A stretch of DNA of 26,104 nucleotides, taken from positions 1 through 26,104 of the forward strand of contig CAVYKI010000001.1 of assembly GCA_963769025.1 (NCBI GenBank). Reading direction: 5' to 3'. Below are positions 9-26,104 of the stretch, piece after piece. The notes below the pieces were generated by a model, which saw nothing but the letters and a program-made list of their open reading frames with translations, was not told the origin of the DNA and searched no databases. Both the position numbers and the translations under genes were made by a program. This DNA is from an uncultured Verrucomicrobiae bacterium (GTDB lineage Bacteria > Verrucomicrobiota > Verrucomicrobiia > Chthoniobacterales > Chthoniobacteraceae). Position 1 is the first letter of the stretch. Every line of letters begins with the position of its first letter.

Positions 9-1268
9 TTAGGTTCCGCGGTAGGAAGCGAGCACCTCCGTGCGGGTCCACCGCTGGAAGAGGCCGCGGCTGTCCACGGGATGAAAAGGCAGCACGTCCG
101 AGTAGCCGGGGATGATCACCTGCACGACAGGAAACCCGATTTCGGGATCGGTCAGGTCCACGACGATGAAGTCCTTTCCCAGCGTCTCGCAGATGTCGCG
201 GGCGTGCGCGATGTCGTCGAGGCAGTCGCTGTGCGGCTGCCCTTTTTCAAAAGGCACGATCTCCCCTTTCCGGAGAAAATCGGCGTTCCGGTACGGGACG
301 AAGCCAAACATGAAAGCAGAGAGAAAATTGTCGCAGTCATCCGGCTGCGACCGGAGGCTGCGGAAATCGTGCTCCAGCAGGCGCGCAAGCTGGCCCTCGC
401 GATCCTCGGAATCGGGCGTGATGAACTCCTGCTGCCTGCGGCCCTGCGTGTATTCCGTGAACATACGTAGCAGCGCCTCCTCGCGGTCGAAGGACGCGCC
501 GACTTTGAAGAAATGCCGGAACTGGTAATCGTGAGGAATATTGTGATCCACGAAGAACGCGCCGAGGCACGGCAGCACGCCGCCGAAGGACAGATCCTTC
601 AGCACCACCTCGATTCCGCGGGCACGGAGAAATTCCATCTGCGCGCGGACGATCGGATGCGTGACAGTCGCGGGATCGATGGTCGGGACGACGATGCGGT
701 TGCGGAGCACGGTGATATGCGCGCGCCGCTCGAAGATTTCGTGCGCGGCGTGGATGATGGCTTCCTCGATATTGTTCCCCGTCGCCTTGCCATTCGGGCC
801 GCCGATGAGGCGCACGTATTCCAGTGGCACCTTCAGCGTCCGTTCCTGGATCAGCGAATAGCCGTCCACCCAATGAAAGGAATCGTCGAGTGCGCGGATG
901 CGTTCGAGCACCGGCGGCGTCGCAGTGGCGATGTGGCCGAGCAGGGATGCGATCGGCAGCGCGTCCGACACCTCGTGCTCGCACGCGCCGAGGTAGCCGG
1001 GCAGTTCGCCGGTCGCGCGTGCGGTGAGCCATTCCGCGCCCTCGGCGAGCGCGCCCGCGGTGCTGCACGCGGGCGTGACACCTTTGCCCATGGAGCGGAA
1101 GTCGAGGCCTTCGATGAACATCGCCGTCCAGTGCAGGTGCTCGGAGAGGGTTTCCTCGTGCAGCCAGTAGTCGTGCCGCGGACGGATGAGGGCGTCGAGC
1201 CGCGCAATCGTCTCGGAGGGATCCACGCAGCGATCGTGCGCGAGTTTGATGCGGGACTGGAGTTTCAT
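9..1268 (-). CDS. ycaO: Stand-alone YcaO-family protein (ATP-dependent peptide backbone-activating enzyme), ~419 aa
   Basis: YcaO motifs SMGKG..ALAEGAE, NGKATGNNIEEAIIHAAHEIFER, KDLSFGG, EALLRMFTEYTQGR and VQVIIPGYSD. The ATG at 1268 overlaps the upstream TGA (ATGA), which supports this start over 1322. Confidence 0.9.
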   Translation of the reverse strand: MKLQSRIKLAHDRCVDPSETIARLDALIRPRHDYWLHEETLSEHLHWTAMFIEGLDFRSMGKGVTPACSTAGALAEGAEWLTARATGELPGYLGACEHEVSDALPIASLLGHIATATPPVLERIRALDDSFHWVDGYSLIQERTLKVPLEYVRLIGGPNGKATGNNIEEAIIHAAHEIFERRAHITVLRNRIVVPTIDPATVTHPIVRAQMEFLRARGIEVVLKDLSFGGVLPCLGAFFVDHNIPHDYQFRHFFKVGASFDREEALLRMFTEYTQGRRQQEFITPDSEDREGQLARLLEHDFRSLRSQPDDCDNFLSAFMFGFVPYRNADFLRKGEIVPFEKGQPHSDCLDDIAHARDICETLGKDFIVVDLTDPEIGFPVVQVIIPGYSDVLPFHPVDSRGLFQRWTRTEVLASYRGT

Positions 1269-3535
1269 TTGCAAATGTCCCGATGGATCGCATCGCCCGC
1301 TGCGAGTCCTTCGGCCACGCAATGGCTCACGGACGCGCCGCCATTCACGAGAGCGCCGGCGGTGTAGATGCGGTCGCCGTGGCCGGAAAGCGCTGCACGG
1401 ACGCCGGCCTCGACCTGAAGTTCCATGGACTCGATGACGAGTCCCACATGCAGCACCGTCTCCGTGTGCAACTCCGCATGGCGAATCCGCACTCCGCGCA
1501 ATTCACCTTCCTGATCACTCTCATATCCCACCGGCTGCCAGTTCATCATCGCCTGCACACTGGGAGTCGCGAACCAGCTCTCCGGCATGTGCCAGTGCAT
1601 CTCCGATCGCGGGCCGCCGAAGATGATGAAAGTTTCCTTCGCCCCGCGGCTCTGCACCGCGCGCGCAGCGTCCATCGCGCTGTCACCTCCGGCCAGGATC
1701 GCCACGCGCTCCGGCACCGGGTGCTCGGGTGATTCGAGAAAACCGATCGCACCGATGACGCCGCGCGCATTGGCCAGCGATCGCTCCTGCCAGAGTCCCG
1801 TCGCGACGAGCACGGCATCGTGATTTGCGTGCAGTTCCTCCAACCGGAGATCCTTTCCGAGCGTGACGCCGAAGTGAAGTTCGAGGCGAGCGGCGGCGAG
1901 TGCGGGCTGCAGGATCGCATCAATCTCCGCGCGCGGGCTGACGAGCGATCGGTGGGCGGCAAGCACGCGCTCCGGCACACCTCCCAGGCGATCCGCCTGC
2001 TCGTAAAGATCGACGGCGTGGCCGAGTTCCACGAGGCGGATCGCCGCCGCGATGCCCGCCGGACCACCACCGACGACGGCCACGCGCTTGCCCGTTGTTT
2101 CCTGCGGCACACGCGCGCCAGTCTGTCCGCGCTCACGCGCGCGCCATGCGATTGCGTATTGCAAATCGAGGATCGGCACCGGCGTGCCCGTGAGCGTGGT
2201 TTCGATGCAGGCACCCTCGCTCTCCAGCCACGCCGGGGAAAGCCGGGAGGTCAGTTCGGGCAGGGGATCGCGCGCGCGGATGATCTCGTAAGCGCGGCCC
2301 TCGTCGCCATTGCGGAAAGCCTGGATGAATGCGGGGATGTCCGTCCACGTCGGCGAAGCGGCTACACAAGGCGCGGCTTCGCACAGGTGACAGCGGGCCG
2401 CGCCAGCGAGAAGTTGATCGGAATCGAAGCGGCGCATCTGCCGATAGACCGGTCCGTACAACACGGGATCGCGGAGCACGCAGCCGACGGTCTCGCCCTC
2501 GTCGCGCAGTTGCGAGCAGGCAAAGCAAACCATGCACGCGGAGCCCGCTTCCATCCGGCCGCGGGTAAAGATTTCCGCAGGTGCAGACGGGTGCGCGAGT
2601 GCGCCGCGGCCAAGGCCGGCAAAGTCGAACATCCCGTCGCGGAGAGCGCCCGCGGCGACCTGCGGCACGAATTGCCGCAGCCAGCTGAAACCGCTTCCGA
2701 CCACCGGCAGGTCGGGTGTGGCTTCGCGGAGGGCACACGCGAGGATCAGTTGGCGCTCGATCGTCATCAGCGGATGCTCGTCAGGATTTTCGGAATCGGA
2801 TCGCCCGCGACCCCCGCGCTCCGCTCCGCGCAGACTCGGATTCGACGCGGTTACGTTCAACAGCGCGAGACCGCTCGCGCGCAGACTCTGCACGAAGCGA
2901 ATCGGCTCGGCGGGATCGAGCTTGCGGTAGTCGTCCACGGAAACGCCAAAGCCTCCGCGAACTGCCTCGTAGGCGCAGAGACGCGTCGTGAGCAGAAGAT
3001 CGGGAGCGCGCTCGCGCACTTGGGCGAGCGCTTCGGGCAGCATGTCGCGGGAACATTGGACATCCACACCATCGAAGCCGGCCTCCACCGCGAGCTTGGC
3101 AGCGTGGACAATGGCGTCCGTCTGCACTGATGTGAGTTGGATGACGATCGTCGGATTCTCCGCAGCCGCGGCGCGCATCTCATCCACCATTGCGCGGAAG
3201 CCCGCGAGGTTCGCTTCATTCAGACCAAGCCGCCCCGGTTTTTCCGCCGTGCCCGCGGCGGTCAGTTCCACCCAGATCAATCCGAAGCGGCCTTCCGCAT
3301 AGCGGCGATAACGGCGGCGGGTGAGTTCGCCCGGTGAGCCATCAGGCCGTGCGTCGCCGCCGGCGATCGGCTGGGCGCAAAAGCGATTGGGGATTTTCCT
3401 CCGCCCGATGCTGAGAGGCTGCGCGAGATGGGTGAGGTCTTCGTTGATTGGAATGCCAAGTCCGAGCCGCGCAATTTCACCGCGCAGGTCCGCGAGCGAT
3501 CCGATGTAGAACGGCTGATACGCAGGGATCTCCAT
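1265..3535 (-). CDS. Fusion of an NADH:flavin oxidoreductase (OYE-like TIM barrel) with a PreT/GltD-like Fe-S/FAD/NAD(P) oxidoreductase, ~756 aa
   Basis: N-terminal IPNRFCAQP, YAEGRFGLIWVE, AGFDGVD and GLGRGALA; CMVCFAC..GC Fe-S motif; RCHLCEAAPC; Rossmann motifs VAVVGGGPAG and ILAGGDSAMDAAR; C-terminal AGALVNGGASVSHCVAEG. ATG at 3535 is 1 bp from the upstream stop. Confidence 0.85.
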   Translation of the reverse strand: MEIPAYQPFYIGSLADLRGEIARLGLGIPINEDLTHLAQPLSIGRRKIPNRFCAQPIAGGDARPDGSPGELTRRRYRRYAEGRFGLIWVELTAAGTAEKPGRLGLNEANLAGFRAMVDEMRAAAAENPTIVIQLTSVQTDAIVHAAKLAVEAGFDGVDVQCSRDMLPEALAQVRERAPDLLLTTRLCAYEAVRGGFGVSVDDYRKLDPAEPIRFVQSLRASGLALLNVTASNPSLRGAERGGRGRSDSENPDEHPLMTIERQLILACALREATPDLPVVGSGFSWLRQFVPQVAAGALRDGMFDFAGLGRGALAHPSAPAEIFTRGRMEAGSACMVCFACSQLRDEGETVGCVLRDPVLYGPVYRQMRRFDSDQLLAGAARCHLCEAAPCVAASPTWTDIPAFIQAFRNGDEGRAYEIIRARDPLPELTSRLSPAWLESEGACIETTLTGTPVPILDLQYAIAWRARERGQTGARVPQETTGKRVAVVGGGPAGIAAAIRLVELGHAVDLYEQADRLGGVPERVLAAHRSLVSPRAEIDAILQPALAAARLELHFGVTLGKDLRLEELHANHDAVLVATGLWQERSLANARGVIGAIGFLESPEHPVPERVAILAGGDSAMDAARAVQSRGAKETFIIFGGPRSEMHWHMPESWFATPSVQAMMNWQPVGYESDQEGELRGVRIRHAELHTETVLHVGLVIESMELQVEAGVRAALSGHGDRIYTAGALVNGGASVSHCVAEGLAAGDAIHRDICK

Positions 3536-3536
3536 G

Positions 3537-4430
3537 TCACTTTTCGTCCGCCTTCGGTTTCCCCACGCACGCCACGTAAAGTGCGAACTCCTCCTTGCCG
3601 TCCACGCCGAGCAATTCATCCACGCGAGGCTGGTGATAGGAAAGCAGCGCGCAGGCTCCCATGCGGCTCGACTCCGCGGCGAGGTAGAGGTTTTCGCACA
3701 CATGCCCCGCTTCCATCGCGATCATGCGATGCGCGAGGTAGGTGTATTTCCACTCCGTCCGATACGGCACGGCGGCCCAGATGAAGACGACCGCCGCGCT
3801 CCCGACTGAAGGCGTGCCGTAGCAGGCGGCCATGAGATTGCTGGAAATCTGCGCGTCTTCGCGGACGAGCACGAGTTCATGGTCGTTCGGCCGGTAGCGA
3901 TAGACGCCCGCGGCCACGCCTTGCACGCGACTGATCGCGAGATAGGTCTCCAGCGGGTAGCGCGCGCCGCCCGAGGGAGCGGCGCGAAACCGCTGCACGA
4001 TCGCTCCCGCCTCGTCGCGCTGCACGGCGGTGATGCCCTGGGTCGCCCATAGCAAAAAGCTCAGTTCCTCCAGCGACAGTTCCGCATCGCTGAAGTCGCG
4101 CGTGCTCCGGCGCGCTGCGATCGCCTCGCGCAGCGGCATGTCGCCGAGATGGATTTCCGCGAGCGGAACGAGCGCGATCTTCTTCGCGCCCGCCGGGATG
4201 GGTTTCTCCGCAGGCGGTTCCGGCTGTTCGTGGTTCCGGTCGCTGTCCGCCCGCCACTCGCCGGGGAAACCCTTGAGCATCACGCGCAATTGCGCGATCG
4301 GGATTTCATTCAGCTCCCGAATCCGCCCCGCCTCGCTCTTCTTGTGGGAGGAATCGCAACCCGAAAAACCGAGCGCGAGAGCGAAGCACGCGCCGGCGGC
4401 AGACAGGGGAAACCACTTTGCACCAGTCAT
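3537..4430 (-). CDS. SagB/ThcOx-family FMN-dependent dehydrogenase (nitroreductase fold) with a predicted lipoprotein signal, ~297 aa
   Basis: RRSTRDFS, LSFLLWATQG, RAAPSGGARYPLETY, GVYRY, EWKY and EAGHVCENLYLAA; N-terminal hydrophobic stretch ending in the lipobox-like FSGC. Confidence 0.88.
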   Translation of the reverse strand: MTGAKWFPLSAAGACFALALGFSGCDSSHKKSEAGRIRELNEIPIAQLRVMLKGFPGEWRADSDRNHEQPEPPAEKPIPAGAKKIALVPLAEIHLGDMPLREAIAARRSTRDFSDAELSLEELSFLLWATQGITAVQRDEAGAIVQRFRAAPSGGARYPLETYLAISRVQGVAAGVYRYRPNDHELVLVREDAQISSNLMAACYGTPSVGSAAVVFIWAAVPYRTEWKYTYLAHRMIAMEAGHVCENLYLAAESSRMGACALLSYHQPRVDELLGVDGKEEFALYVACVGKPKADEK

Positions 4431-4500
4431 GACTTTCGAGCCGGGATGCACACGAATCGCGCGCGGTTCCTGAAGGTTTGTCGTGTCCCGAGGGGACGCC

Positions 4501-4697: not shown

Positions 4698-7600
4698 CTA
4701 GAGAGCGCCATTGAGCGCCTTGTAGTACTCGGCGACTTTGTCCCGATATTTCGGCGGCGCCTGGTCGGGGCCGCTCTCGATCACGTTGTCGAGCGCTCCG
4801 GTCGAGCCCTTCGCTTCCATTGCGCCGGAAGGGCCGGCTGCGAGATTCGCGGCTGCGCGGGTAAGCGATGAAATGCCCATCTTCCGAAACTCGCGCATCT
4901 GCCGGATGTCGCCTTTCGCGATGGCATCGGCGGATTGCTTGAGCTCATGCGCGGCGTTCTTCAGCGAATCCACGCGTATATTTTTCATGGAGGCTTTCGC
5001 GTAAAGCGCGTCGGCTTGGCGGGCCATCAGCGCGGCCATTCCTTCGGCGGATCCGGCTTCCTTCGAGTCCACGCGCTCCGCGCCGCCGCCCATGCCCATC
5101 GCGTCAGCCTTGCCGGTCCCGAGCTTGCCGCCGCCAGTGGCCTTCGTGTCCGCCTCGCCTGCGAGATCCACCTTTCCGCTCTGCATCGGATCCTCGGTGC
5201 GGCGTGCCTCGATGTTCTTGTCGCCTTCGCCGATCGTGCCGGAGCCTGCGGCGGTCTCGCCGCTGGACATGCCCTGCCGGCCCACGTTCGAGCGTCCGTC
5301 CTGCTCCTTGTGGTCGGGAGTCTGGTTGCCGGATTTCCCCTGCGCGCCGAAGGAAGCGATGTCCCCTTCCATCACGTCCCAGCCAGCCGGAAAATCCGGC
5401 ATCGCGTGGTTGGTGGCGCTGTCGTCCGCTTCCTTGGCCATCTTCTCCTCCTCTTTCATGAGGTCGCCCACGAGGTCCTGCGCCGCCGCCGCGAGTTCCG
5501 CAAGCGCGATGCCGGATTCCGGCATCTCGGCCTTGTCGTGCGCCTCGGTCGTCACCTTGAGTTCGTCCGGCTTTTCCATGAGCCACATTTCCATCGCATC
5601 GATCCGCTCCTTTGCCTCGCCCATCTGCGCGAGAAGTTCGTCCTCCTTTGCAAAGCCCAGCTCCTTCACCTTGTCGGCGCCGTCTTTTTCGGAACCGGCC
5701 TTCTGCTCGATCTCCTGAAAGACTGCGAAGACATCCTCGACGAGATCATTTGCGACATTCAACTCGGTGAAAATGTGGAGGTCGGTCGGGACTTCGAGCA
5801 GCGCTTCGATGGTGTTCTTTTGCATCTCCACGAAGGCCTCCTCCATCTCGTCCATCGCCTGGTCGTCCTTGTCTTTCTGACCCTTCACCTGCTCCATCGC
5901 CTCCTTCATTTTCTGATTCAGCGCCTCGAGTTTGGCGACCTTCTCCTTGGCCTGTTTCACCGCTTCCACGAGGGCTGCGCGATTCTCGGCCTCCTCCTTC
6001 AGCTTGATCTGGTCGAGCATCGCCTGGAGCGTCTTGAGGCTGGCGATTGCCCGCTCCTCCAGCGGGACCGCCGCGTCCGGCTGGTTCTGGTCGAGTCGCT
6101 CGGCTGCCACCACCATGTCGTTGCGGATCTTCAGTTCCCCGGCAGTCGCCATCACCTTGTCAATCGTCGCGGCGAGCGCGGCGTCGGTCTGCATCACCTG
6201 TGCCGCCTCGTCCTTGCACGCGGCGAGGAATGCCGCCATGTCGCTGCCGAGCCGATCCTGCCCATCCACGAGGGCGCTTCCGACCTTCGCTTTGCTCTCG
6301 ATGAAAGTGCGCGTCAGTTTCAGTGCGCCGGTCTGGTCGCGCAGCAGCGATTCGATCATCGCCGCGAGTCCGGCCACGCGCCGGTCAATCTTCGCATCTG
6401 CCGCCGCGGACATCGCGAAACTGAGCTGCTTCAGAATCTTCGCCTCCAGCGTCACCGCCTCGCTTGCGAGCATTGCCTTGCGGGCGTCCTCCGCGGACGG
6501 GATGGATTGCAGCGCATCCACCGCGAGCACCATCTCATGCACGTAGAGTTTCTGCGCCGCCGCAGTGAGCGTGCCGAGCGGCTTCACCGGATTCGCCAGC
6601 AAATCGCGCATGAGGCTGCGGACTTCCTTCTGCCGCTCCGTGGCTTCCGACCACTGCGCCCCGGTCGTCGCCGCCAGCGTGTCCTTGAAGCGCACCGTGT
6701 CCGCGAGATTGCGTTTCTGGATCTCGATCACCTTTTGCAAATTCACCAGCGCCTCCTTTTCGAGCGCATCGCGCTTCTTCGCGAGGTCCGCCGCGGTCGG
6801 CGCGTTGAAAATCACGTTGGCGGAAAAGGACTCGTTCGGCTTCTCCGTCTTGTTGTCGCGCGCGATGATGCGGTAGGCGATGTCGCCCCCGCGCGCCGGT
6901 GAGGTCGCGCTTTTCCAGATCTGCCGGAAGTTGCGCGCACCGCCGACCGTCCACCGTTTCACTTCCGTGCCCTTGTCCGCGCTCGTGGAATTCGGCGTCA
7001 CTTCCTCGATGACGACCTCGCCGATGCCAAAATCATCCGCGACTTGGAATTCGATCTGCGGGCGCTCGCCCGGCGGCAGGATCGCGCGCCCATTCGGCGA
7101 GACGATCTCGACGCCCGGCGGCTTGTCCGGCTCCAGCACAAAGGACACTTCCTCCTCGAAGCTGCTGCCAAATTTGTCCTCGCCGCGGAGGATGAAAGAC
7201 GTGCCGGAAACGAGCGTCGCCGTGCCCTTCCAGATCGTCGGCTGCGCCGCTGCTGCAAGGTCCACGGATTCGCGCACCCCGCCGCGCAGCCGGATGGATT
7301 CCAGCGGCGTGTTCGATGTCGCGGTGACCTGCGCCTCCGATCCTGCCGGGATGATCAGCTTGCCTTCGCGCGGATTCATGACGCGCGGCTTGAGCCGCAT
7401 GTAAGGCGGCGGCGAGACGACCATCGAGATGCCCGTGAACGCCGGCGGCGGCCGCGTCGCGATGGCGAACCACGCCGAGTCCTGCGCATCGCCCGCGCGG
7501 AAGCGGTAGCGCAGCCCGGTCGTCACTTTCGCGAGCTTGTAGCTGAAGTCCTGTTCCAGCCCGCCGCGAACCTTACCGATCGAGTAGGTGGTCTTCGGCG

Positions 7601-8276
7601 CATCGCTCGGCTCCACCTCCACCTTCACCTCGTGCCCCTCGAACCCCTTCACCGTGCAGCTCAACACCAGCGGCTCGCCCTGCAACACGGTGGACTGCCC
7701 CGGCTTCACCTTGAGGATCTTCGTGAGGCTCGGCGGCTCCACGTTGGAAAATGGATTCACCGTGCGCCACACCGCGACCATCCACGCCTGCCCGAAAAAG
7801 AACAGCGGCAGCACGAGCAATCCCGCGGCCACGGACAGCGCCGTCCAGTTGCGACGGTGCGCCTTTTCATCGCGCATCTTGCGGAAATCGAGGTTCCACC
7901 AAGCGGGTGTGCCGGCCTTCACGTAGGCGGCCTTGAACGGATCGCCCTCGGGATTCTTCGCGAGTTGGAGATAGTTGATGAGATGGTTGTCCAGTTCCGG
8001 AAAGGACTTCTCCACCGTCGCCGCCACCGCCTCCGGCGTTAAACGCCTCCGCAGCGCGCCACGCACCAGCCAGAGCGTCGCCCCGATGAGAGCGAGGAAA
8101 ATGCTCCACGTCACCAACCGCCCCGGACGCTCGATCCGCAGCCACAAATCCAGCAGCCCGAACAGCCAGACCCAGCCGGTGACGACCGCCAGCCCCAGCG
8201 TGAGTTTCAGCTCCGCGCGCCACAGGTTCAGGCATCGCCCGATCTGATCGAGCTTGGCGAGGTATTGGGGAGGCAT
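4698..8276 (-). CDS. Large membrane-anchored DUF4175-like protein (TM helices, Ig-like domains, long coiled coil), 1192 aa
   Basis: N-terminal TM segments; AATVEKSFPELDNHLINYLQ; DKPPGVEIVSP..ADDFGI; Glu/Lys/Ala-rich helical region; C-terminal PPKYRDKVAEYYKAL, as seen in large MoxR-cluster proteins. Family name is from pattern recognition. Confidence 0.7.
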   Translation of the reverse strand: MPPQYLAKLDQIGRCLNLWRAELKLTLGLAVVTGWVWLFGLLDLWLRIERPGRLVTWSIFLALIGATLWLVRGALRRRLTPEAVAATVEKSFPELDNHLINYLQLAKNPEGDPFKAAYVKAGTPAWWNLDFRKMRDEKAHRRNWTALSVAAGLLVLPLFFFGQAWMVAVWRTVNPFSNVEPPSLTKILKVKPGQSTVLQGEPLVLSCTVKGFEGHEVKVEVEPSDAPKTTYSIGKVRGGLEQDFSYKLAKVTTGLRYRFRAGDAQDSAWFAIATRPPPAFTGISMVVSPPPYMRLKPRVMNPREGKLIIPAGSEAQVTATSNTPLESIRLRGGVRESVDLAAAAQPTIWKGTATLVSGTSFILRGEDKFGSSFEEEVSFVLEPDKPPGVEIVSPNGRAILPPGERPQIEFQVADDFGIGEVVIEEVTPNSTSADKGTEVKRWTVGGARNFRQIWKSATSPARGGDIAYRIIARDNKTEKPNESFSANVIFNAPTAADLAKKRDALEKEALVNLQKVIEIQKRNLADTVRFKDTLAATTGAQWSEATERQKEVRSLMRDLLANPVKPLGTLTAAAQKLYVHEMVLAVDALQSIPSAEDARKAMLASEAVTLEAKILKQLSFAMSAAADAKIDRRVAGLAAMIESLLRDQTGALKLTRTFIESKAKVGSALVDGQDRLGSDMAAFLAACKDEAAQVMQTDAALAATIDKVMATAGELKIRNDMVVAAERLDQNQPDAAVPLEERAIASLKTLQAMLDQIKLKEEAENRAALVEAVKQAKEKVAKLEALNQKMKEAMEQVKGQKDKDDQAMDEMEEAFVEMQKNTIEALLEVPTDLHIFTELNVANDLVEDVFAVFQEIEQKAGSEKDGADKVKELGFAKEDELLAQMGEAKERIDAMEMWLMEKPDELKVTTEAHDKAEMPESGIALAELAAAAQDLVGDLMKEEEKMAKEADDSATNHAMPDFPAGWDVMEGDIASFGAQGKSGNQTPDHKEQDGRSNVGRQGMSSGETAAGSGTIGEGDKNIEARRTEDPMQSGKVDLAGEADTKATGGGKLGTGKADAMGMGGGAERVDSKEAGSAEGMAALMARQADALYAKASMKNIRVDSLKNAAHELKQSADAIAKGDIRQMREFRKMGISSLTRAAANLAAGPSGAMEAKGSTGALDNVIESGPDQAPPKYRDKVAEYYKALNGAL

Positions 8277-8292: not shown

Positions 8293-8898
8293 TCAGAATT
8301 TCATCGAAGGGTCGGCGACCTTCGTCACCGTCACATTATCGAGAAAGCCCGGTTTTACCATCCAGATATAAACCGTCAGGTAGCGCACTTTCTTAAGTGC
8401 CGCTGTCGCCGCCGCCGAGAGCTTCACGCCCGGCAGTTCGATCTTCTCCTGCTTCCACGCATCGCTCGAACCGGTGGTCGCCTTGCTCTGGTAGATCATC
8501 CGCAGTTCGCCCAGCTCGGGATTGTCGTGCGGCCTCACACCCGGCGTCCATTGATATCCCGCAAAGTAAACGCGGTAGCCGCCGCCCTTGATGTCAAAGG
8601 TGCAGACGTACCTGAATCCCGGCTCCAGCGGAAACGCGCGGCACTCCAGCTTCACCCCCGCATCGCCCGCATTTCCAAATTGCGCGACATTCCCCCGCCC
8701 GGCTTCCTGCACGATCGAGAGGTGCTTCTTGTTCCCGATGTAGTGGCTGTTCCCCGTAAACGCGTAATCCGTCACCCAGCCTTTGAACGGCTCTGTCGGA
8801 TGGTCAAAACTTCCGTTTTCCATCAGCGACTGCGCCCAGGCGCTTGGCACGGCGAAAGAAGCGGCAATTAGGGCGAAGCTGGAGAGGAGGAATCGCAT
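8293..8898 (-). CDS. Secreted galactose-binding-like/CBM4_9-like beta-sandwich protein, ~201 aa
   Basis: Signal peptide MRFLLSSF..AWA, then QSLMENGSFD; LEPGFRYVCTF; FLDNVTVT. Confidence 0.65.
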   Translation of the reverse strand: MRFLLSSFALIAASFAVPSAWAQSLMENGSFDHPTEPFKGWVTDYAFTGNSHYIGNKKHLSIVQEAGRGNVAQFGNAGDAGVKLECRAFPLEPGFRYVCTFDIKGGGYRVYFAGYQWTPGVRPHDNPELGELRMIYQSKATTGSSDAWKQEKIELPGVKLSAAATAALKKVRYLTVYIWMVKPGFLDNVTVTKVADPSMKF

Positions 8899-8939
8899 GG
8901 CGGGAGCGATTGCATTTGATAACCGGGGAGTGGCCCGGA

Positions 8940-13277: not shown

Positions 13278-13382
13278 GGGCGGCCTGATTCGAAATCGAG
13301 AGCCTAAAGCGCGGCGCTATGCGGTTCCATGATCATGCGAGCGGTTGTCCAACAAGGCCGGAACAATTGGAAGGACTCGGTT

Positions 13383-14895: not shown

Positions 14896-15072
14896 GGGGG
14901 CTTACTTTACCGGATGCTTCCGGGGAGGGTTTCATTGCAGGGATCCCCGAATGACGATGCAATCGTTCTTTGGCCGGAGCCCCGTTCGCCGAGACCACCT
15001 GTGCCACACCCAGCCGGCTCAACTTTTTCAACCATCCGCTTCCGCTGCCCCGAGAGGCTGCTACTGAAAGTC

Positions 15073-16479: not shown

Positions 16480-16537
16480 GACCGCACGCGTTGGCCGGTT
16501 AGCGTGAGTGTCCGACTGCCCCGGTCCGCCGCCCTCC

Positions 16538-17653
16538 ATGAATCTCCCCCGCCTCCTCGCCGCCGTGTCACTGCTTCTCACCGCGTGTGCTTTCGCGCAG
16601 CGGCGCGAACCTGCCGCAAACGTCGTCACCGTGCGCAACGCCGCCGAGTTGCGCGCCGCGCTGCAGGTGCTCAAGCCCGCGACCGTTTTGAAAATCGCGC
16701 CGGGCGAATATCCCGGCGGCCACTCGGTGCAGGGCGTCGAGCGGCTCACCGTCGAGGCGCTGGATCCGAAAAATCCGCCGCACTTCAAGGGCGGGAACAC
16801 GGCGTGGCAGTTCTCGCGCTGCGACGGGCTCACACTGCGCGACGTGCGCGTGAGCGGACAGCAGGCCAACGGCATCAACCTCGACGACGGCGGACAGCTC
16901 GACCGGCCGGTGAAAGGCATCACCATCGAGCGCGTCGAAATCTCCGACATCGGCCCGCGAGGAAACCACGACGGCATCAAAGCCTCCGGCCTCACCGGGC
17001 TGACGATCCGGGACTGCACCATCGCGGGCTGGGGCGGCCAGGGGATCGATTTCGTCGGATGCCACCAGTCGCTCATCACCGGATGCCGGTTCATCGGCAA
17101 ACCGGGCTTCACCGCGAGCGCGGGCGTCCAGCTCAAAGGCGGCACGTCCGGCGTCGTCGTGGAAAAATGCCGCTTCACCGACGCCGGTCAGCGCCCCGTG
17201 AACGTCGGCGGCTCCACCGGCATGGCGTACTTTCGCCCGCAGGGTGCAAAGCACGAGGCCAGCCGGATCATCGTCCGCGAAAACATCATCGAGGGCGGAC
17301 TGTGCGCCGCCGCGTTCGTCGGCGTGGACGGCGCGGAATTCACCGGCAACACGATCCTGTTCCCCACGAAATGGATCTTCCGCATTTTGCAGGAGACAAC
17401 CGCGGATGGCTTCGCCCCGTGCCGCAACGTGCTCGTGAAAGGCAACCGCATCGTCTTCCGTCGCGCGCAGGTGCAGACGGATATCAACATCGGCGGCGGC
17501 ACCGAACCCACGACGTTCCGCTTTGAAGGCAATCACTGGTTTGCCGAGGACCGCCCCGGCGCGTCGAAGCCGCAGCTCCCGGTCGCGGAAAAGGACGGCG
17601 TCCACGGCACCGATCCGCGGCAGGCTGCTCCGGTGCCGCCGCGACGGCAGTGA
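16538..17653 (+). CDS. Secreted right-handed parallel beta-helix repeat protein, ~371 aa
   Basis: Signal peptide (AFA-Q); LKIAPGEY; NGINLDDGG; DGIKASG; GIDFVGC; repeated I-x-x-C/N-x-F/I strands. Confidence 0.85.
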   Translation: MNLPRLLAAVSLLLTACAFAQRREPAANVVTVRNAAELRAALQVLKPATVLKIAPGEYPGGHSVQGVERLTVEALDPKNPPHFKGGNTAWQFSRCDGLTLRDVRVSGQQANGINLDDGGQLDRPVKGITIERVEISDIGPRGNHDGIKASGLTGLTIRDCTIAGWGGQGIDFVGCHQSLITGCRFIGKPGFTASAGVQLKGGTSGVVVEKCRFTDAGQRPVNVGGSTGMAYFRPQGAKHEASRIIVRENIIEGGLCAAAFVGVDGAEFTGNTILFPTKWIFRILQETTADGFAPCRNVLVKGNRIVFRRAQVQTDINIGGGTEPTTFRFEGNHWFAEDRPGASKPQLPVAEKDGVHGTDPRQAAPVPPRRQ

Positions 17654-17794
17654 GGGACCGCACGTCGGAATACGTCAGCGGCGCACTCTGTCGCACGGAA
17701 CCGCGCTGTGGCGTCCAAGATTTGACGGCTGGAAATTTATAGTCCTTGTGTTGCGAACGGCGCGTCGCGGTAATGCGAAACCACACAACACCAA

Positions 17795-18211
17795 ATGCAT
17801 ACAAAACAAGCGACCGTCCTTCTGAATGCCCCCGAACTCCGCTCCCGCGGCATCCTGAATCTCTTCGTGGCGATTGCTGCGTTCCTGGCCGTTCTGAGTC
17901 CTGGCGACAGTTTCGCTCAGAACATGGTGAAGAAATTCGTGATCATCACTTCGGACGCGTGCAACGGGGAATTTTCCTGGACCAGTGAGGCTCAGGCCAT
18001 ACGGGATCTGAAGGGCGAGTGCGCCAAGAGCGCGGCCCGGAAAAAGGACGCGATGGCCCGCCAACTCGGGACTCACATCTCCTTTTCCAAGGAGGTGAAT
18101 TGGATGCTGATTCCGCACATGCGCACCTTCAAAGGCGTCAGCAAAGAGACACGCTACAAGGCGCTGCAGGGGTCGATGGCTTACGAGTATTATTACTACG
18201 TAAAAAGGTAA
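17795..18211 (+). CDS. Hypothetical, probably exported small protein (up to 138 aa)
   Basis: Hydrophobic segment followed by SFA-Q; two Cys; protein-like composition; fills the gap between convergent genes. Start is uncertain. Confidence 0.55.
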   Translation: MHTKQATVLLNAPELRSRGILNLFVAIAAFLAVLSPGDSFAQNMVKKFVIITSDACNGEFSWTSEAQAIRDLKGECAKSAARKKDAMARQLGTHISFSKEVNWMLIPHMRTFKGVSKETRYKALQGSMAYEYYYYVKR

Positions 18212-18260
18212 CCGGGAGTGCCTGCGCCAGCGATCCTGGCAGCTCCGAGATTCCAGCCGC

Positions 18261-19213
18261 TCACCTGCTCAGGCGGCGGCGCTCCTCGAGGTAGGCGCGC
18301 ACGAATGACTCCAGCGGCTGGTCCGTGCGCACGAGGCGGTAGTCGATGTTCATGCCGGCGCAGGCTTTCTGGTATTGTTCCAGGAACGCTCCGAAGACTT
18401 TCCGGTACTCGTCGGCGAGGCCGCGCGGATTCACGGCAGGCGCTCGCCGGTTTCGAGGTCCTGCAGTTCGCAGGCTTTCTTGAAAGTCAGATCGATCTCC
18501 GCCGGATCGAGCGTCTGAAAGACGATCACGTCGTGGCGCTGTTTGCGCAGGTGTGCGAGCGCCTTCACCACCGCGGCTTCGTCGCCGAGCAGGTCGGAGA
18601 TCACCACGACGAGCGCGCGCCGCCGCACGGAGCCGGCGATTTCGTGCAGCGTCTGCGCGATGCCCGTGCCCTCGCCGGGCGGGTTCGACTGCACGTGCTT
18701 GAGCATGTTGTTGAGATGCTGGAACGAATTTCCCGCATCCATCCGCACATCCACTTTTTCCGCGTGGAGAAAAAGTCCCACGGAGTCGCGCGCCTTCACG
18801 ATGACGTAACCGAGCGCCGCGGCGAGATGGCAGGCAAACTGGAACTTCGTCGGACCTTGCCGTCCGAGGAATAGCCCATCGAGGCGCTGCGATCGAGCGC
18901 GAGGTACACGCGCAGGTTCGTCTCGTCCTCGTAGCGCTTGATGAAATACTTGTCCGTGCGCGCGAGCACGCGCCAGTCGATGTGCTTCGGTGTCGTCGCC
19001 CTGGCCGTAGGATTTGTGGTCCGCAAATTCCGAACTCGGCCCGCGCAGCGGACTGCGGTGCGCGCCGGCGAGATTTCCCTCGACCGTGTAGCGCGAGAGC
19101 AGCACGAGCCGGCCGAGCTTGTGCATTTCCGCCGGATTCAGAAACGCGGCGATGCCCTCCTTTTCCGGTGCCTTCGCGCGGGGCTTTTCCTTTGGTTGCG
19201 GGTCGGAGGCCAT
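18261..19213 (-). CDS. DUF58 family protein (VWA-like MoxR partner), ~317 aa after correcting three frameshifts (~18991, ~18855, ~18438)
   Basis: GAHRSPLRGPSSEFADHKSYGQGDD / KHIDWRVLARTDKYFIKRYEDETN..LDRSASM / DSVGL..VVVISDL..DPAE / EYRKVFGAFLEQY, spread over alternating frames; TGATG overlap with the upstream gene. Confidence 0.9.
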
Positions 19214-20025
19214 CAGGGGCGGGGAGAAATTTTCCAGTGCGTGAAGTCGCACACCACGATGATTTTTGCGCCGACAAACGCGACATGCAGATCGCCCGTC
19301 GCCTGACCGACGCCCACGACCGCCGTGCCTCCCGCGAGTTTGAATTTCACCGCCTGCGTGTTTCCGGGCGCGGGGATGACCTGCTGCGGCACGGCTGAAA
19401 TGCGCGAGGCGTACGGCAGGTTCACGGCGACCTTCAGCTCGGATGTTTCGCCCAGCACCGCGCTCCGCAGCGAGTATTTCTGGTCCGCGAAACCCTTCAC
19501 TTTCCCGAAGCCCGTCAGCGAATACTCCCACGGTTTGCCGAACCGATCGCGCCATGGCGGCTGCGGCTGTGCCTTCAGTTTCGGATGCGCCGCGAGTTGC
19601 TCGAGCGTCTTCGGGTAGGCGATCTCCTTGCGGTAATACGCCTGCAGCGCCGGCAGCACCCGCTCGCGATCCGCTCGCGTCATCCAGCCCAGCGCCAGCC
19701 GGCGCGCGCCGTCGTTCACCGGCCCCGGCGGCAAGGCGAGATCCGCCTCGAACATCTGCAGCGCCTCGGTCTGCTGGCCCGCGCGCAACATCCGCCACTC
19801 CTCAAATCCGCGCACCACCGGCAGCAGCGGATCACCGGCGTGCGCCTTCGCAAATTCCCGGCACGCCGTGATCACCGCCCCGTGATCGTCCGGCGTTTCC
19901 ATCTGCAGCTTCCACAGCTCCAGCAGCGCATCCTCCTCCGCCGCGTGCGCAGAAATGCAGCAGATCAAAACCGCGCAGGCGAGCAGCAGAAAACCCGGGC
20001 GCCGTTCGAGCCGCAGGCGATTCAA
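19213..20025 (-). CDS. Hypothetical exported helical-repeat protein, ~270 aa
   Basis: TTG start at 20025 overlaps the upstream TGA and is preceded by GGAGG; signal peptide ending AHA-AEE; continuous ORF. Confidence 0.65.
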   Translation of the reverse strand: MNRLRLERRPGFLLLACAVLICCISAHAAEEDALLELWKLQMETPDDHGAVITACREFAKAHAGDPLLPVVRGFEEWRMLRAGQQTEALQMFEADLALPPGPVNDGARRLALGWMTRADRERVLPALQAYYRKEIAYPKTLEQLAAHPKLKAQPQPPWRDRFGKPWEYSLTGFGKVKGFADQKYSLRSAVLGETSELKVAVNLPYASRISAVPQQVIPAPGNTQAVKFKLAGGTAVVGVGQATGDLHVAFVGAKIIVVCDFTHWKISPRP

Positions 20026-20688
20026 CGCTGGCCGCCCTCCTTCGTCCCGCCCGCTGCGCGCTGCTGCTTCCGCTTTGCGATTTCCTTTTCCAAAAATTCC
20101 ATCCACCCCTTCGGGCCGCCTTCCGCCAGCACCTTGTCGCGATGCACCAGCAGGTCGCGGTCGCGGAATTCCACCTTCACGGGCCGCGGTCCCTCGGTGT
20201 AGCTGTAAAACGTCGCCCCGGGATTCACCTCGCCGAGCAGTTCCTTGCCGACCTTCGGGCTCAGCCGATCCTTGTGCCGCACGATGGTTTCACCGAGCAC
20301 GATGGCGTTTTTCGCCGGGTCAAATCCGCTGAGCTTGCCAGTCACCGCGATGGCGTCCCCGACTTTGGAGACCGGGTCGCGATCTCAGCAGCGAAAGCGA
20401 CACCGGCATCGTGATGGTGAATTTCACATCGAGATACGATGACGGCTCGAACGCCGTGATGCGCACACCGTCGCGTCCTTCTTCCTTCACCGGTTCCATT
20501 TCCATGATCTGCAGGTAGCGGAAGAAATGCGGCCTGCCTTGTGCATCATCAACGACGGCCTTCCTCGCCGCGGGACTTTTCGCCTCGGCGAATGCGAGCG
20601 CGAACTCGTTGCCATTGGAGGTCGCCGCCGTCCCGACGGTAATCAGCGAAAGCCACACCACGGTGAAAAGAACAGCGTGCCTGTTCAT
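20022..20688 (-). CDS. Hypothetical exported protein, ~221 aa after correcting one +1 frameshift near 20385
   Basis: The signal-peptide ORF 20320-20688 joins ORF 20022-20345 via DPVSKVGDAIAVTGKL; 7 bp from the DUF4159 stop. Confidence 0.65.
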
Positions 20689-22204: not shown

Positions 22205-22495
22205 ATGAAAAACGCCACCGCGAAGAAAGTCATGAGCTCAGCGCTCGCCGCGACGCTCTGCACCGGCACCCTGCTTTCGAATGATGGCACGGGTGAAAAG
22301 GGATTCGTCGCGCCGCCCCGGGAAATGAAGAAGCCGCCGGCGCCGCCGCGTGTCGCGTCCTCAGCCGAAACGGTCCTCGCGTGCTGCTGCTGCCCGGTCA
22401 CTCCCATGTCGCGCACCGAGGCGAAGAAGCCGCCGCAACCCCCCGTCCTGATCACGAAGATCAAGGAGGAGAGCGCCGGCACCGGCAAAAAGTAG
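22205..22495 (+). CDS. Small Pro/Lys-rich protein with a CCCC motif, 96 aa
   Basis: ATG start; basic then hydrophobic N-terminus; mostly G/C-ending codons; first gene of the plus-strand arm, 26 bp before the next start. Confidence 0.7.
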   Translation: MKNATAKKVMSSALAATLCTGTLLSNDGTGEKGFVAPPREMKKPPAPPRVASSAETVLACCCCPVTPMSRTEAKKPPQPPVLITKIKEESAGTGKK

Positions 22496-22521
22496 CAAGC
22501 CGTTTGCGCCGGTTCCCCGCG

Positions 22522-24781
22522 ATGCCCGGAAGCTCCGCCGCCCGTCGCACCGTCGCGTGGTTCGGCGTCGCGCTGCTCCTCTCCCTCCTCCACCTGCACG
22601 CCGCTGGCGACTGGCAGGTCCCCGAGGCGCCGCTGCGTTACAGGCTCGATCTTACCAAGAAGCCCACGCATGCCAGCGCCGGATATTTTGTCACACCTGC
22701 CGGATGGCGGCATTTTCCGCGGCAACACGCCGGCGACCACGGTCGTGACGGACGACGGCAAGGTGCTCCCCAGCTATCTCCTCTGGAACAGTGCCGAGAG
22801 CGGCTTTTCGATCGTCTTCGCCGATCCCGGCAGCCAGGCGCGATCGGCAAATGTTTACACCCAGCCCGGTGCGGGCGCGCGGCTGTGGCGGCCAAATACC
22901 GGCCTCACGCCCAGCGCGATCCTCTGCACATTTCCCGGACGCGACAACCTCGGCTCCGCCCGCGCGCTCGCCAGCCTCGGGCGGGTGGATGCGGACGTCC
23001 ATTCCGCGAACGAAGCCGGCATCCTGCGGGCGCCCTTCAGCATCGGCGGGGACAGCACCGGACGGCCGCGCCCGGGCGCGTTCTACATGCTCTCGCATCT
23101 CGATGCGAAGGAAGCTGGCAGCTACTGGATCGCGCCGTTCATCCAAAGCGGCCAATGCGAGATCCTGATCGACGGCACGAAGATCAATCCCAAGGAGAAG
23201 TCGAAGGCATGGGGTGGGACCGGAGCGTCCGTCGACCTCACGAAGGGCCTCCACCGCGTCGAGGTCTTCCAGACCGCGCCGGGCACCGGCCCCTACTCGT
23301 CGAGCCAGCGGGACGGCGGGCTCATGTATCTCACGTGGCGCGCTCCCAGTGAGAAGCTCAAGCAGGTCGAATCCCGCGTCGTCAGCAGCTCCGAGATCGT
23401 CCGCTCCGGCACCTGCACTCTCACCGCCGTCGAAGCCCGCGATGGTGCGCCCGTCGCCGCAGGCGATCGCCCGGCCCGGCCTTACCTACTGGTTTGAAAA
23501 TGAGGAGCCGCTGATCATCTACGAGCTCAGCGCGCTCACCTCGGGCCAACCTGCCGGCGCGACCTACACGTGGACCTTTCCCGAAGGCGCGACGCTCGAA
23601 GGCGCGAAGATGCAGTGGATTTTTCCCGGCTTCCGAGACAGCAAGGTGAGGCTCACCGTCAAGGCCGGCCAAAGCATCTCCGTCGTGCATCGTCCCGTTC
23701 TTCGGATTCAGCACGCAGCAGACCAGCCTCGAAAACCCCGCGCATCGCAAGGCCTTCCGCGACACCCTCGCCGGAATGCTCGGGGCGTTCCCGCGCAATC
23801 CCAATCCGATCACGAATTGGAGCGATGCGTGGTGGAACAACCTCCTCCGCACTGTCGAGGGCGGCGAAGGCGAGGCGCTCCTGCTGCGTCTTTTCACCGA
23901 TCATTTCGATGCGGCCCGCAAGAAACTCACGCCTGCCCAGCGCTACGTTCTGGAGGATGTTTTTCTCGACCTGACGCTCCGCGACAATCCCGGAGAGAAC
24001 TTCAAGTGGCTGCAAAAATTCTTCGCCGCCACGCCCGAGCCTGAGCGCCAGAACGAGCTGCGACTTCCGCGAGGGCGAACTGCACATGTATTACCTCGGC
24101 GACCGCCCGCAGGCCGAAAAAATCTTCACCGCGCTCGCCGCCGGCCGCGCCCAGATCGGCGAACGCGCAAAGATCCGCCTCGGCGACCTCGCCTTCCTCG
24201 GCGGCGATCTCAACAAGGCCACCGGCTATTACGCCGACATCCAAAACCGCGCCCGCTCGGCGCGGAACGCCGCCCCCGCCCTTCCCGGCGGGCTCGTGAC
24301 CAATCAGCTCCTCGAAGCCGGCCAAAGCCGCCCGGCTACGCCCGCGCCGCCGCAGAAAACCGGCGCCGCGGCCGATCAAAAAGGCGGTGCCCTGCAGGAA
24401 GTGTCGCTCTCCGAAAACGTCCGCACGCTCACCGAAAACAATTTTTTCCTCGAAGCCCGCCAGGGCCTGCTCGCTTGGGAAAACGAATTCCCGCTCAGCA
24501 AAATCAGCGGCGACTACATTCTCGGCGAATCCGCCCTCTACATGAAAATGCAGGACTGGAAACGCGCCCAGCCGATGCTCGAGGCTTACTGCCGCGAGAT
24601 CGACGCCTCCAGCTTTCTCCCGGACGCCGCGTCCATGCTCATCACCTGCGTCACCGCGTCGAAGGCGCCGCCCGCCTCCATCCGCGAGATCATCGAGAAA
24701 GTGAAAGGCCGGCTCAAATATCATCCCGTCGCCAGCCAGCTCGACAAATTCCTTTCCACCGCCGGCCCCCCGGCAAAATAG
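22522..24781 (+). CDS. Large exported protein with PA14-like, PKD-like and TPR-like regions, ~751 aa after correcting four +1 frameshifts (~22694, ~23462, ~23684, ~24068)
   Basis: Signal peptide (LHA-AGDW); ILIDG..VDLTKGLHRVE..LTWRAP (PA14-like); TYTWTFPEG (PKD-like); AKIRLGDLAFLGGDLNKATGYY (TPR-like). The 2260-nt span minus 4 bases is a multiple of 3. Confidence 0.7.
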
Positions 24782-24787
24782 GCCTGC

Positions 24788-25504
24788 ATGGCACTCCGCA
24801 TTCTCCTCCTCGCCCTCCTGTTTGCCGGCACCGCGTTCTCCCAAAACGCCCCCGAGCGCACGCGGCTCTACACCAAGCCCGACCCCGCGAACACCGGCGG
24901 ACTCAAGGGCCGCATCGCCAATCCCGTCCTCCCCATCGAACAGATCCTCGCCATTCCCGCGGAAAACCCGGAGGAAGTTTACCAAGGCGAGATCTCCGGA
25001 TCGCAGCGCACCGCGTTCGAGTTCAAGGGACTCCCGGTCGGAAAATACGATCTCATCGTCATCTACCCCGCCGCCTTTTACGAGGGACTCCGGCTGAACC
25101 GCGACGCGAGCACGCTCACCACGGATGACCTGCAGAAGATCGAAACGACGATCCAGAAATCCGAGCCATTTTTTACGAAGCGGATCGTCCACCGCGTCGA
25201 GGGCGAATCCGGTCGCGGCAATATGGCGCGCGCCCTCGTCACCTATTTCCGTGAAAAAGGTTCCGAGCTGTTGCTGGAAACGTTCGAGGGAAAATCCAAC
25301 CGCCCCGATTTCCGCCGCACCTTCAAGCTCGTGCTCCTCAAGGACGTCGGACCCGGCTGGCAGATCGCCCGCGCACGCGATCTCTACCCCGTGTGGGTGA
25401 ATCCGAAGGGCACGCTGCCCGTTCACAAGTTCAGCGCGGCCCTGAGTCAATTTCGCGTAGCCGATCAAATCAAAGACCTCGGCGATCTCGACCTCACCCG
25501 CTAA
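24788..25504 (+). CDS. Hypothetical exported protein with a carboxypeptidase-regulatory-like beta-sandwich, 238 aa
   Basis: Signal peptide (AFS-Q); [20 protein letters not shown]. Confidence 0.75.
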
Positions 25505-25533
25505 AGCCGGTTCCCTCGCCAACCCCACTTTTT

Positions 25534-26104
25534 ATGGCCGAAATCGAATTCAAATCAGGTCCCATCGCCGGGCGCAGCGTCAAGCTCACTGCGAAGAGCT
25601 ACAAACTCGGACGCAAGCACGACCTCGACCTCACACTCGAAGACGGCATGACGTCCGGCGAACACGCCGAGCTCCACTTCGCGGATGGTGTTTGGAAGGT
25701 CGTGGATCTGGGCAGTTCCAATGGCACCTGGCTCAACGAATCCAAGATTTCCTCCGCCGCCCTTTCCGACGGCGACCTCGTCCAGATCGGCGGCAGCACG
25801 TTCACATTCTATGCCGATGCCACGCCGGCGGGCGGCGTGGACAAACCACCCATGGCGAGCTCCGACGAGCTCGCACTCGTCGAGCAGATGCGCGACCGTG
25901 CAAATCAGATCCGGCGCGAAGTCGGGAAGGTGATCGTCGGCCAGCTCGACGTACTTGACCAGGTCCTTATGTGCATTTTGGCAAATGGCCACGCGCTCCT
26001 CATCGGGCTCCCCGGCATGGCGAAGACGCTCATGGTCCGCACCATCGCGCAGGTGCTGAATCTGAAGTTCAAGCGCGTGCAGTTCACCCCCGACCTCATG
26101 CCGG
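25534..26104 (+). CDS. moxR: FHA domain-MoxR AAA+ ATPase fusion (3' end truncated by the window; absent from the ORF track)
   Basis: Manual translation from ATG 25534: [33 protein letters not shown] (FHA), in frame with [32 protein letters not shown] (MoxR Walker A and signature). Confidence 0.93.

Follow-up and report, generated by a model that had tools for sequence, protein, structure and literature searches.

A YcaO enzyme and a four-cysteine peptide linked to a MoxR/VWA envelope gene cluster in Verrucomicrobiota

The 26,104-nucleotide contig CAVYKI010000001.1 from an uncultured Verrucomicrobiae bacterium (assembly GCA_963769025.1, here G000), analyzed over its full length and referred to as the window, harbors a single copy of a cell-envelope system that comprises about 16 genes and occurs in Verrucomicrobiota sensu GTDB (Chthoniobacterales, Kiritimatiellia, Lentisphaeria). 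The core of the system comprises the cytoplasmic AAA+ ATPase FHA-MoxR and its partner DUF58, three membrane proteins (BatA_N with a von Willebrand factor A (VWA) domain, a GATase1-like protein, and a protein of 1192 residues), and the exported proteins DUF4159, h297, h240, W17, W18, and W19. Alongside these, the window encodes a YcaO enzyme, a flavoprotein oxidoreductase (Ox), a SagB-type dehydrogenase, and a small peptide with four consecutive cysteines, the CCCC peptide. The YcaO module is a dedicated accessory of the envelope cluster, because this YcaO clade occurs almost only inside the cluster, is found there in four gene orders, and co-occurs with the CCCC peptide in six of six genomes. 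A new observation is that the peptide corresponds by homology to the N-terminal segment of fused DUF4159 proteins, which carry a proline motif where the peptide has its cysteines and are encoded by genomes without this YcaO. It seems probable that YcaO, together with the flavoprotein and the exported SagB-type dehydrogenase, forms heterocycles at the cysteine run of this detached DUF4159 subunit.

Association of the YcaO module with the envelope cluster

A sequence-only reading of the window had proposed that a YcaO module is linked to a MoxR-VWA-DUF4159 cluster, and comparison between genomes upholds this link. In a sample of 301 genomes of the phylum, orthologues of the YcaO (55-61% identity) are present in five genomes beyond G000, and a distant match (31-32% identity) occurs in two more. 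Searches with the window proteins (tblastn) located the cluster around or near the YcaO gene in all five other genomes, in differing orders. A free-standing CCCC peptide is encoded in exactly the six YcaO genomes of the 301.

An alignment of the six YcaOs was also scanned against one genome per species. This yielded 68 YcaO loci (52-86% identity), all from the Planctomycetes-Verrucomicrobia-Chlamydiae (PVC) group: Chthoniobacterales/Spartobacteria, Kiritimatiellia, Lentisphaeria/Victivallales, or unclassified PVC metagenome-assembled genomes. At least one core cluster gene is present in 58 of the 68 loci. Five loci are short contigs with only the oxidoreductase or SagB, and five have neither, a single one of which (L035) extends for 10 kb on the informative side. 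The CCCC gene was detected in 23 loci and lies directly downstream of YcaO in 22. Occurrence of the module in unrelated contexts, which the sequence-only reading had named as a possible outcome, was not seen, this YcaO clade being almost confined to the cluster.

Four gene orders were distinguished. In the Chthoniobacterales, including the window, the order is VWA-GAT-h240-W04-SagB-Ox-YcaO. The other three are h297-YcaO-CCCC-DUF4159-DUF58-BatA-GAT-h240-W04 (and onward), W04-W17-W18-W19-MoxR-SagB-Ox-YcaO-CCCC, and, with further genes ahead of it, W04-SagB-Ox-YcaO-CCCC-W17-W18-W19-MoxR. The complete genome G197 has all of these genes on one strand, with h297-YcaO-CCCC at the head of the array and MoxR-SagB-Ox at the tail. 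That YcaO stays in the cluster through these four orders, in three classes, argues against the reading that it lacks a functional link and is carried along with a mobile or often rearranged set of genes. The same is true of the sampled genomes, none of which has YcaO without the CCCC peptide or the reverse. Passive carriage would fit the single origin of the split forms described below, as well as L035, which has no cluster genes within 10 kb downstream of YcaO, and G284, where the 12 kb read of the contig that holds the CCCC gene showed none of the other cluster genes. We nevertheless regard it as very improbable.

The link to the cluster is specific to YcaO and the CCCC peptide. Ox lies beside YcaO in 52 of the 68 loci and SagB in 39, and neither is tied to the module as closely as YcaO. 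Exclusivity of Ox to YcaO was considered and rejected, as a homologue of 35% identity occurs outside the cluster in four YcaO-less genomes.

The association appears to be new to the literature searched, which took in few subscription-only papers and no supplements. Within it, the terms "YcaO" and "MoxR" were not found to occur jointly, "DUF4159" was found only in the Pfam paper, and no paper was found that joins YcaO to DUF4159 or describes the link between YcaO and the cluster. Among the matches listed, papers combining YcaO with "Verrucomicrobi" appear by their titles to be mostly surveys of biosynthetic clusters, and YcaO does not appear among the matches listed for its combination with "Lentisphaer" or "Kiritimatiell". 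The main text of PMC4603692 contains no mention of Verrucomicrobi, Lentisphaer, Planctomyc, von Willebrand, or AAA.

Fused and split forms of DUF4159

A profile was built from an alignment of 20 CCCC peptides and run over the 301 genomes, 31 of which gave a hit. The six best hits (E <= 2e-39) are frames of 95-129 amino acids (aa) in the six YcaO genomes. Hits in the remaining 25 genomes are weaker; 24 fall in frames of 423-742 aa and the 25th is in a fragment. Of these loci, 24 were read, and the 21 complete ones were aligned with the DUF4159 protein and the peptide of the window. Each of the 21 encodes a DUF4159 protein of about 510 aa that has the matching segment at its N-terminus: the window peptide aligns to the first ~100 residues of the fused protein and the window DUF4159 (224.4 bits against PF13709 in two stretches, cut-off 25.9) to the rest. 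None of the 24 loci read has the CCCC run. The site instead reads PYPGPP or PFPPPP (P[FY]P[PG]PP), or LPPLPLP.

The YcaO was found in none of the 25 fused-form genomes in the 301-genome search, and no YcaO of any kind was found in the five of them tested with PF02624. The sequence-only reading had raised the question of whether orthologous MoxR clusters lack the SagB-oxidoreductase-YcaO triad; in part they do, since YcaO is missing from the majority of such clusters, and 25 of the 301 genomes have the fused DUF4159 versus six with YcaO. Three YcaO-less clusters read gene by gene share one order, namely fused DUF4159, h297, DUF58, and BatA onward. Those of G296 and G062 run on through GAT, h240, W04, and W17-W19 to FHA-MoxR, and the matches in G176 end at BatA/VWA. 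The contrast between a fused protein with polyproline and a split one with CCCC and YcaO suggests that a short site within a single protein is critical to function, and provides a first concrete experimental handle on DUF4159 and the cluster.

Two families (f36 and f21) each hold both fused and split states. A quick maximum-likelihood tree of the DUF4159 domain was computed with IQ-TREE from 32 rows, leaving out L104 (a 235-aa hit, under the 350-aa filter) and L111 and L112 (fragment, cut frame). The 11 split proteins form one clade (Shimodaira-Hasegawa-like approximate likelihood-ratio support 99) nested among the fused proteins, with the fused protein of G254 as sister. The fission, the change from proline to cysteine, and the gain of YcaO would thus go back to one origin.

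A separate observation concerns G296, in which just one cysteine occupies the CCCC position of the fused DUF4159 (PFPCPPV). The same genome encodes a 503-aa nitroreductase with ThcOx (cyanobactin oxidase) and nitroreductase domains on the minus strand (L136:3571-5082, G296 C70). This combined state may be an intermediate or may have arisen independently.

In the window, the start of the peptide frame lies one base from the listed DUF4159 frame, and the peptide sequence includes ...SSAETVLACCCCPVTPMSRTEAKKPPQPPVLITKIK... Among the 20 aligned peptides, mean column identity is 64% and the four cysteines are invariant, as are the motifs GF, PP.PPR, and R-T-x-A-K-K-P-P-x-P-P. The split peptides also share an invariant T-L-C-x-x-T-x-L in the signal-like region (window 22250-22275, residues 15-24), which is not a canonical lipobox. 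In the fused proteins the signal peptides are not conserved and do not have this motif. Its retention only in split forms fits an added constraint such as enzyme recognition, and it could be an enzyme-recognition element. Among public peptides, the cysteine run varies to CCCCC, CCSCC, CSC, and GGCCC (P0014, P0016, P0017, P0018, P0019, P0021, P0023, a set that includes an EGGA case considered below). The CCCCC and CCSCC variants keep cyclizable residues and are therefore counted in favor of heterocyclization.

An AlphaFold model of the fused protein of G062 (predicted local distance difference test (pLDDT) 84, predicted template modeling score 0.81) contains two GATase1-like domains and, among PDB entries, best matches the DUF4159 structure 4i66 (E 8.6e-11). 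Residues 80-85 (VLFTKI) form a beta-strand with a block mean pLDDT of 87. Residues 23-44 score about 70-79, and residues 45-74, which include the proline motif, score below 50. As DSSP assigns strands only where there is a pairing partner, the VLFTKI strand is presumably part of the sheet in the first of the two domains. The window DUF4159 starts after the equivalent of this strand and the peptide ends with it, which suggests, as judged from the model, that the peptide supplies the strand to DUF4159 in trans.

Candidate chemistry and its alternatives

The YcaO of the window scores 171.3 bits against PF02624 (cut-off 25.7), covering profile positions 1-324 of 325, and falls below the cut-off of every NCBIfam YcaO subfamily model, including the SagD, McrA, and S12 types. 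Residues E76, E79, E177, E180, and R181 are invariant in the six orthologues. These residues align with the GEYFER and SEVFER motifs of E. coli YcaO (PDB 4q84), which we take to be its ATP/Mg site. At least 364 sequence clusters of this YcaO are present in public databases and are named, if at all, "YcaO-like" or "S12 methylthiotransferase accessory factor". A prediction of the complex of YcaO, ATP, and peptide gave a score of 0.01 and, having no controls, speaks neither for nor against binding.

The dehydrogenase belongs to the SagB family of flavin mononucleotide (FMN) enzymes, scoring 129.1 bits against TIGR03605 (cut-off 78.4). Most of the N-termini of about 40 SagB orthologues, read by eye, have a hydrophobic signal-like stretch, and several are lipobox-like. 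Export would be unusual for a SagB. Ox combines an FMN barrel like that of old yellow enzyme, an Fe-S domain, and a FAD/NAD(P)H domain; its NCBIfam matches are GltD/FadH-like and all under cut-off.

A precursor with a core rich in Cys, Ser, or Thr is present near YcaO in the form of the CCCC peptide, which we infer to be the substrate. In the course of events envisaged, the proline-rich N-terminal segment of DUF4159 would have become a separate gene of about 95 codons in one lineage, its P-x-P-x-P-P stretch would have turned into C-C-C-C, and YcaO would have joined the cluster, usually with Ox and SagB. In the cytoplasm, before export, YcaO would use ATP to activate backbone amides at the cysteine run and so produce thiazolines. 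These may be converted to thiazoles by the exported SagB-type enzyme or undergo other processing by Ox. In the periplasm, the modified peptide would rejoin DUF4159 and donate its C-terminal PPVLITKIK strand to the first domain, with the run of heterocycles taking the place of the polyproline stretch. Replacement of PxPxPP by CCCC suggests that the heterocycles stand in for prolines. A more specific version is put forward tentatively, as rather less than probable: the four cysteines become contiguous thiazol(in)e rings that act as a rigid structural element, and the substrate was split off to permit modification before export and subsequent strand complementation. If these proposals are true, peptide heterocycles would serve as structural mimics inside protein assemblies rather than in a secreted toxin or antibiotic, and gene fission would have been driven by the needs of a modifying enzyme. 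The suggestion of the sequence-only reading that the system matures envelope proteins through steps including backbone chemistry may be correct in this sense.

Several observations weigh against heterocyclization. The modified peptide is a prediction from gene content, and the topology is awkward, as the peptide and SagB look exported and YcaO needs cytoplasmic ATP. The six-of-six co-occurrence reflects one origin and subsequent faithful co-inheritance across several rearrangements, not repeated independent events. The YcaO reaches only 65.3 bits against the SagD-type cyclodehydratase model TIGR03604 (cut-off 219.25) and 70 bits against the McrA-type model TIGR03266 (cut-off 365), and a PDB profile search puts MJ1094 (thioamide-type), E. 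coli YcaO, TruD, and LynD all at E 4e-16 to 7e-14. Because it is below both cut-offs and equally distant from thioamide- and azoline-forming structures, its sequence does not decide its chemistry. No E1-like/Ocin-ThiF partner or protein with a recognition element of the RRE type was found in the Pfam and NCBIfam scans of 22 and 20 open reading frames (ORFs), respectively, a scope confined to the window. One small public peptide (P0018) has EGGA in place of the cysteines. The triad of SagB, oxidoreductase, and YcaO is also not uniform, even though YcaO itself is dedicated to the cluster: seven loci with W04 and Ox lack SagB, and none was found in G182. SagB-like proteins (41-50% identity, without the N-terminal extension) occur in YcaO-less genomes, as do the Ox-like proteins mentioned above, and in the YcaO-less cluster of G296 the ThcOx-domain nitroreductase directly follows MoxR.

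One alternative is that YcaO belongs to the system and has another substrate or chemistry. It would thioamidate or otherwise activate the backbone of DUF4159, at the conserved EACCGR motif visible in the alignment, or of another cluster protein, and the CCCC run would serve another purpose. The lack of an E1-like partner in the window scans and a best PDB sequence match of the archaeal MJ1094 type are consistent with this. Precedents exist as well, as YcaO-TfuA thioamidation has been reported for two components of cellular machines, McrA (PMC5589413) and ribosomal uL16 (PMC13063428). The present module is similar in that YcaO would act on a component of a cellular machine, not on a secreted natural product. 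It differs in its TIGR03266 score, in the proposed substrate, a dedicated small peptide with four cysteines, and in that TfuA (PF07812) was not found in any of the six carrier genomes (G000 being only 83% complete), which also argues against thioamidation. In addition, EACCGR is conserved in the fused proteins of YcaO-less genomes as well and hence does not track YcaO, whereas the CCCC run does, and its gene abuts YcaO in 22 loci. On these grounds we consider a different substrate or chemistry unlikely.

It is quite unlikely, too, that the cysteine run is a metal, Fe-S, disulfide, or lipid site on an unmodified peptide, and that YcaO, Ox, and SagB perform a redox or small-molecule task. The cofactors of Ox, an FMN/Fe-S/FAD enzyme of the FadH/GltD type, and the apparent export of SagB would suit such a role, and relatives of both enzymes exist without YcaO. 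However, this would not account for why YcaO and the cysteine run are so strictly paired, or why cysteines took the place of a proline motif that is not reactive. To our knowledge, moreover, YcaO enzymes act only as ATP-dependent amide activators. Heterocyclization explains the pairing of YcaO and CCCC better than any of these rival readings.

The azole-forming synthetases of thiazole/oxazole-modified microcins and linear azol(in)e-containing peptides (TOMM/LAP), namely McbBCD (microcin B17), SagBCD (streptolysin S), and BalhCD/BcerB, are a natural point of comparison, for which the NCBIfam models TIGR03604/TIGR03605 were used as a proxy. As in those systems, a YcaO and a SagB-family dehydrogenase are accompanied by a small ribosomal peptide with a Cys-rich site, encoded next to YcaO in 22 of the 68 loci. 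Two features of TOMM/LAP synthetases fail here: there is no E1-like/C-protein partner in the window scans and the YcaO is far under the SagD-type cut-off. Furthermore, the peptide is conserved over its full length, begins with a signal-like region, and shares homology with a segment of a structural protein; the dehydrogenase looks exported; there is an extra FMN/Fe-S/FAD oxidoreductase; and the surroundings of the module are an envelope system of about 16 genes rather than a toxin or export cluster. Most known YcaO enzymes come from antibiotic and toxin pathways, with two or three cases in which core cellular proteins are modified, and one is here tied to a widespread MoxR/VWA envelope system.

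The core of that system has relatives among MoxR operons, such as the Bacteroides aerotolerance operon and Rhizobium RL3499-RL3502. Others are the Leptospira Bat proteins (PMC3557215), Borrelia BB0172/BB0173 (PMC5700661), and a Riemerella MoxR (PMC11834572); according to the accessible parts of these papers, their function is unsettled and envelope or stress phenotypes have been reported. Shared with the Bat operons are the MoxR AAA+ ATPase, DUF58, and a membrane protein that combines a BatA_N double-transmembrane domain with VWA. Unlike them, the PVC cluster adds FHA on MoxR, DUF4159, the 1192-aa coiled-coil membrane protein, and five exported proteins of no family, as well as the YcaO module in one of its lineages.

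Window layout, core genes, and assembly

The features of the window are listed in Table 1. The window is the whole of contig C1 of G000, an assembly of 13 contigs (5.34 Mb, 64% G+C, rated 83% complete), and its genes were defined from an ORF listing together with the Pfam and NCBIfam scans. As the contig is complete, the MoxR arm is cut at 26104.

Table 1. Features of the window, in order of position.
Feature	Position	Strand	Family match or remark
YcaO, 419 aa, stand-alone, without signal peptide	9-1268	minus	PF02624
Oxidoreductase Ox, ~756 aa from MEIPAYQ	1265-3535 (812-aa open frame 1265-3703)	minus	Oxidored_FMN, Fer4_20, Pyr_redox_2
SagB-type nitroreductase, lipoprotein-like signal (...LGFSGC)	3537-4451	minus	TIGR03605
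W04, 1192-aa membrane and coiled-coil protein	4698-8276	minus	No Pfam/NCBIfam match; in clusters with and without YcaO
h240, exported, no family	8293-9015, probable start 8898	minus	Conserved between GATase1-like gene and W04
GATase1_like membrane protein, 734 aa	8940-11144	minus	PF07090; conserved in cluster
BatA_N double-transmembrane + VWA, frame break near 13025	11141-13277	minus	PF07584, TIGR02226, VWA_2 (PF13519)
Inserted block, three genes	13280-18276	both	Pfam
Sulfatase	13383-14895	minus	Frame break near 14150; inside inserted block
APC (amino-acid) permease	15073-16479	plus	Inside inserted block
Beta-helix protein	16508-17653	plus	Inside inserted block
DUF58 (MoxR-associated, VWA-like), frame breaks	18261-19213	minus	PF01882; C-terminus in another frame
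h297, exported, no family	19213-20106	minus	Core gene beside DUF4159
DUF4159, split form, own signal peptide, without Pro-rich N-terminal segment	20696-22099 (listed frame to 22204)	minus	PF13709
CCCC peptide, 96 aa	22205-22495	plus	ORF reading ...LACCCCPV...; heads divergent arm; layout: signal-like N-terminus, GDG..GFVxPP, PPAPPR, SSAET, CCCC, RTEAKKPPQPPVLITKIK
W17, exported, no family, three frame breaks	22522-24044	plus	Spread over four frames here, a single open frame in G197 and G243
W18, no family, weak TPR-like signal	24086-24781	plus	Conserved order W17-W18-W19-MoxR
W19, exported, no family	24788-25504	plus	Conserved in cluster
FHA-MoxR AAA+ ATPase, first 190 residues	25534-26104	plus	FHA, AAA_3 (PF07726); contig end

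From position 9, the minus strand encodes YcaO, Ox, SagB, W04, h240, the GATase1-like protein, and BatA_N+VWA and, past an insertion, DUF58, h297, and DUF4159. The plus-strand arm runs from the CCCC peptide through W17, W18, and W19 to FHA-MoxR, which agrees with the divergent arm that the sequence-only reading had described. The genes it named are all present, and so is its co-directional series into SagB-Ox-YcaO, though not as an unbroken run: a sulfatase, a permease, and a beta-helix gene interrupt it. The interrupting block is an insertion, since BatA abuts DUF58 without it in G243, a genome of the same gene order, and a contig from a relative (run X4) joins 13279 straight to 18277. It is not part of the envelope system and splits the cluster by about 5 kb. 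Between the beta-helix gene and the end of DUF58, the only ORFs in the stretch 17654-18260 are of 138 and 147 aa, and neither matches a family.

The Bat-type set of MoxR (AAA_3), DUF58, and BatA_N-VWA is present in one cluster, with MoxR cut and BatA and DUF58 frame-broken. Full-length MoxR orthologues have 496-499 aa with FHA, AAA_3, and AAA_lid_2 domains. The N-terminal FHA occurs on the MoxR of the cluster throughout (window, L136:5188-6678, L139:17651-19150) and, as a sequence feature, raises the possibility of control through Ser/Thr phosphorylation; the window was found to contain no kinase gene. Pfam searches at E up to 5 gave nothing usable for W04, h240, h297, W17 (G197 copy), W18, W19, or the peptide. 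The label DUF4175-like that had been attached to the 1192-aa protein did not find support, as PF13779 gave no match at this threshold; its sole lead is the W04 neighbor cluster in Atlas, 10% of the members of which carry PF13779. h297 abuts YcaO in Kiritimatiellia and was considered as a member of the YcaO module. This was rejected on the basis of its presence in 20 of the 301 genomes, including YcaO-less clusters in which it lies beside DUF4159.

BatA, the sulfatase, DUF58, and W17 are each spread over two or more frames. Decay of the cluster was rejected as the leading reading of these breaks given that rpoB of the same assembly (C3:124523-128279) is in nine pieces over several frames, with one in-frame TGA. 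An X4 contig of a relative has one base fewer at 13025, and BatA is one open frame in G197. From these data, in particular the broken rpoB and the missing base at 13025, the frame breaks in the window are most likely assembly indel errors rather than gene decay, and pervasive errors of this kind probably lower the completeness estimate of G000. A relative's contig also shows indels in the DUF58 region, at 18670-18675 and 18859-18861. Another run (X3) contains near-identical short pieces, none spanning the frame-break sites, and the best DNA sequencing runs share 0.14 of sampled words with the window.

A second, decayed copy of part of the window is located on another contig of the assembly (C3:661058-665687; L012:10069-14689), and may be either a true duplication or part of a second strain in the bin. 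It matches window positions 2-206, 673-1524, and 15060-18340 with 91-99% nucleotide identity, and derives from a window-like arrangement, as the insertion of the permease and beta-helix gene is common to both. The stretch 17654-18260 of the inserted block is also found in it. Its YcaO has lost an internal piece and carries frame breaks, and its Ox is reduced to the final 87 residues. The copy also includes the permease, the beta-helix gene, and 25 residues from the C-terminus of DUF58.

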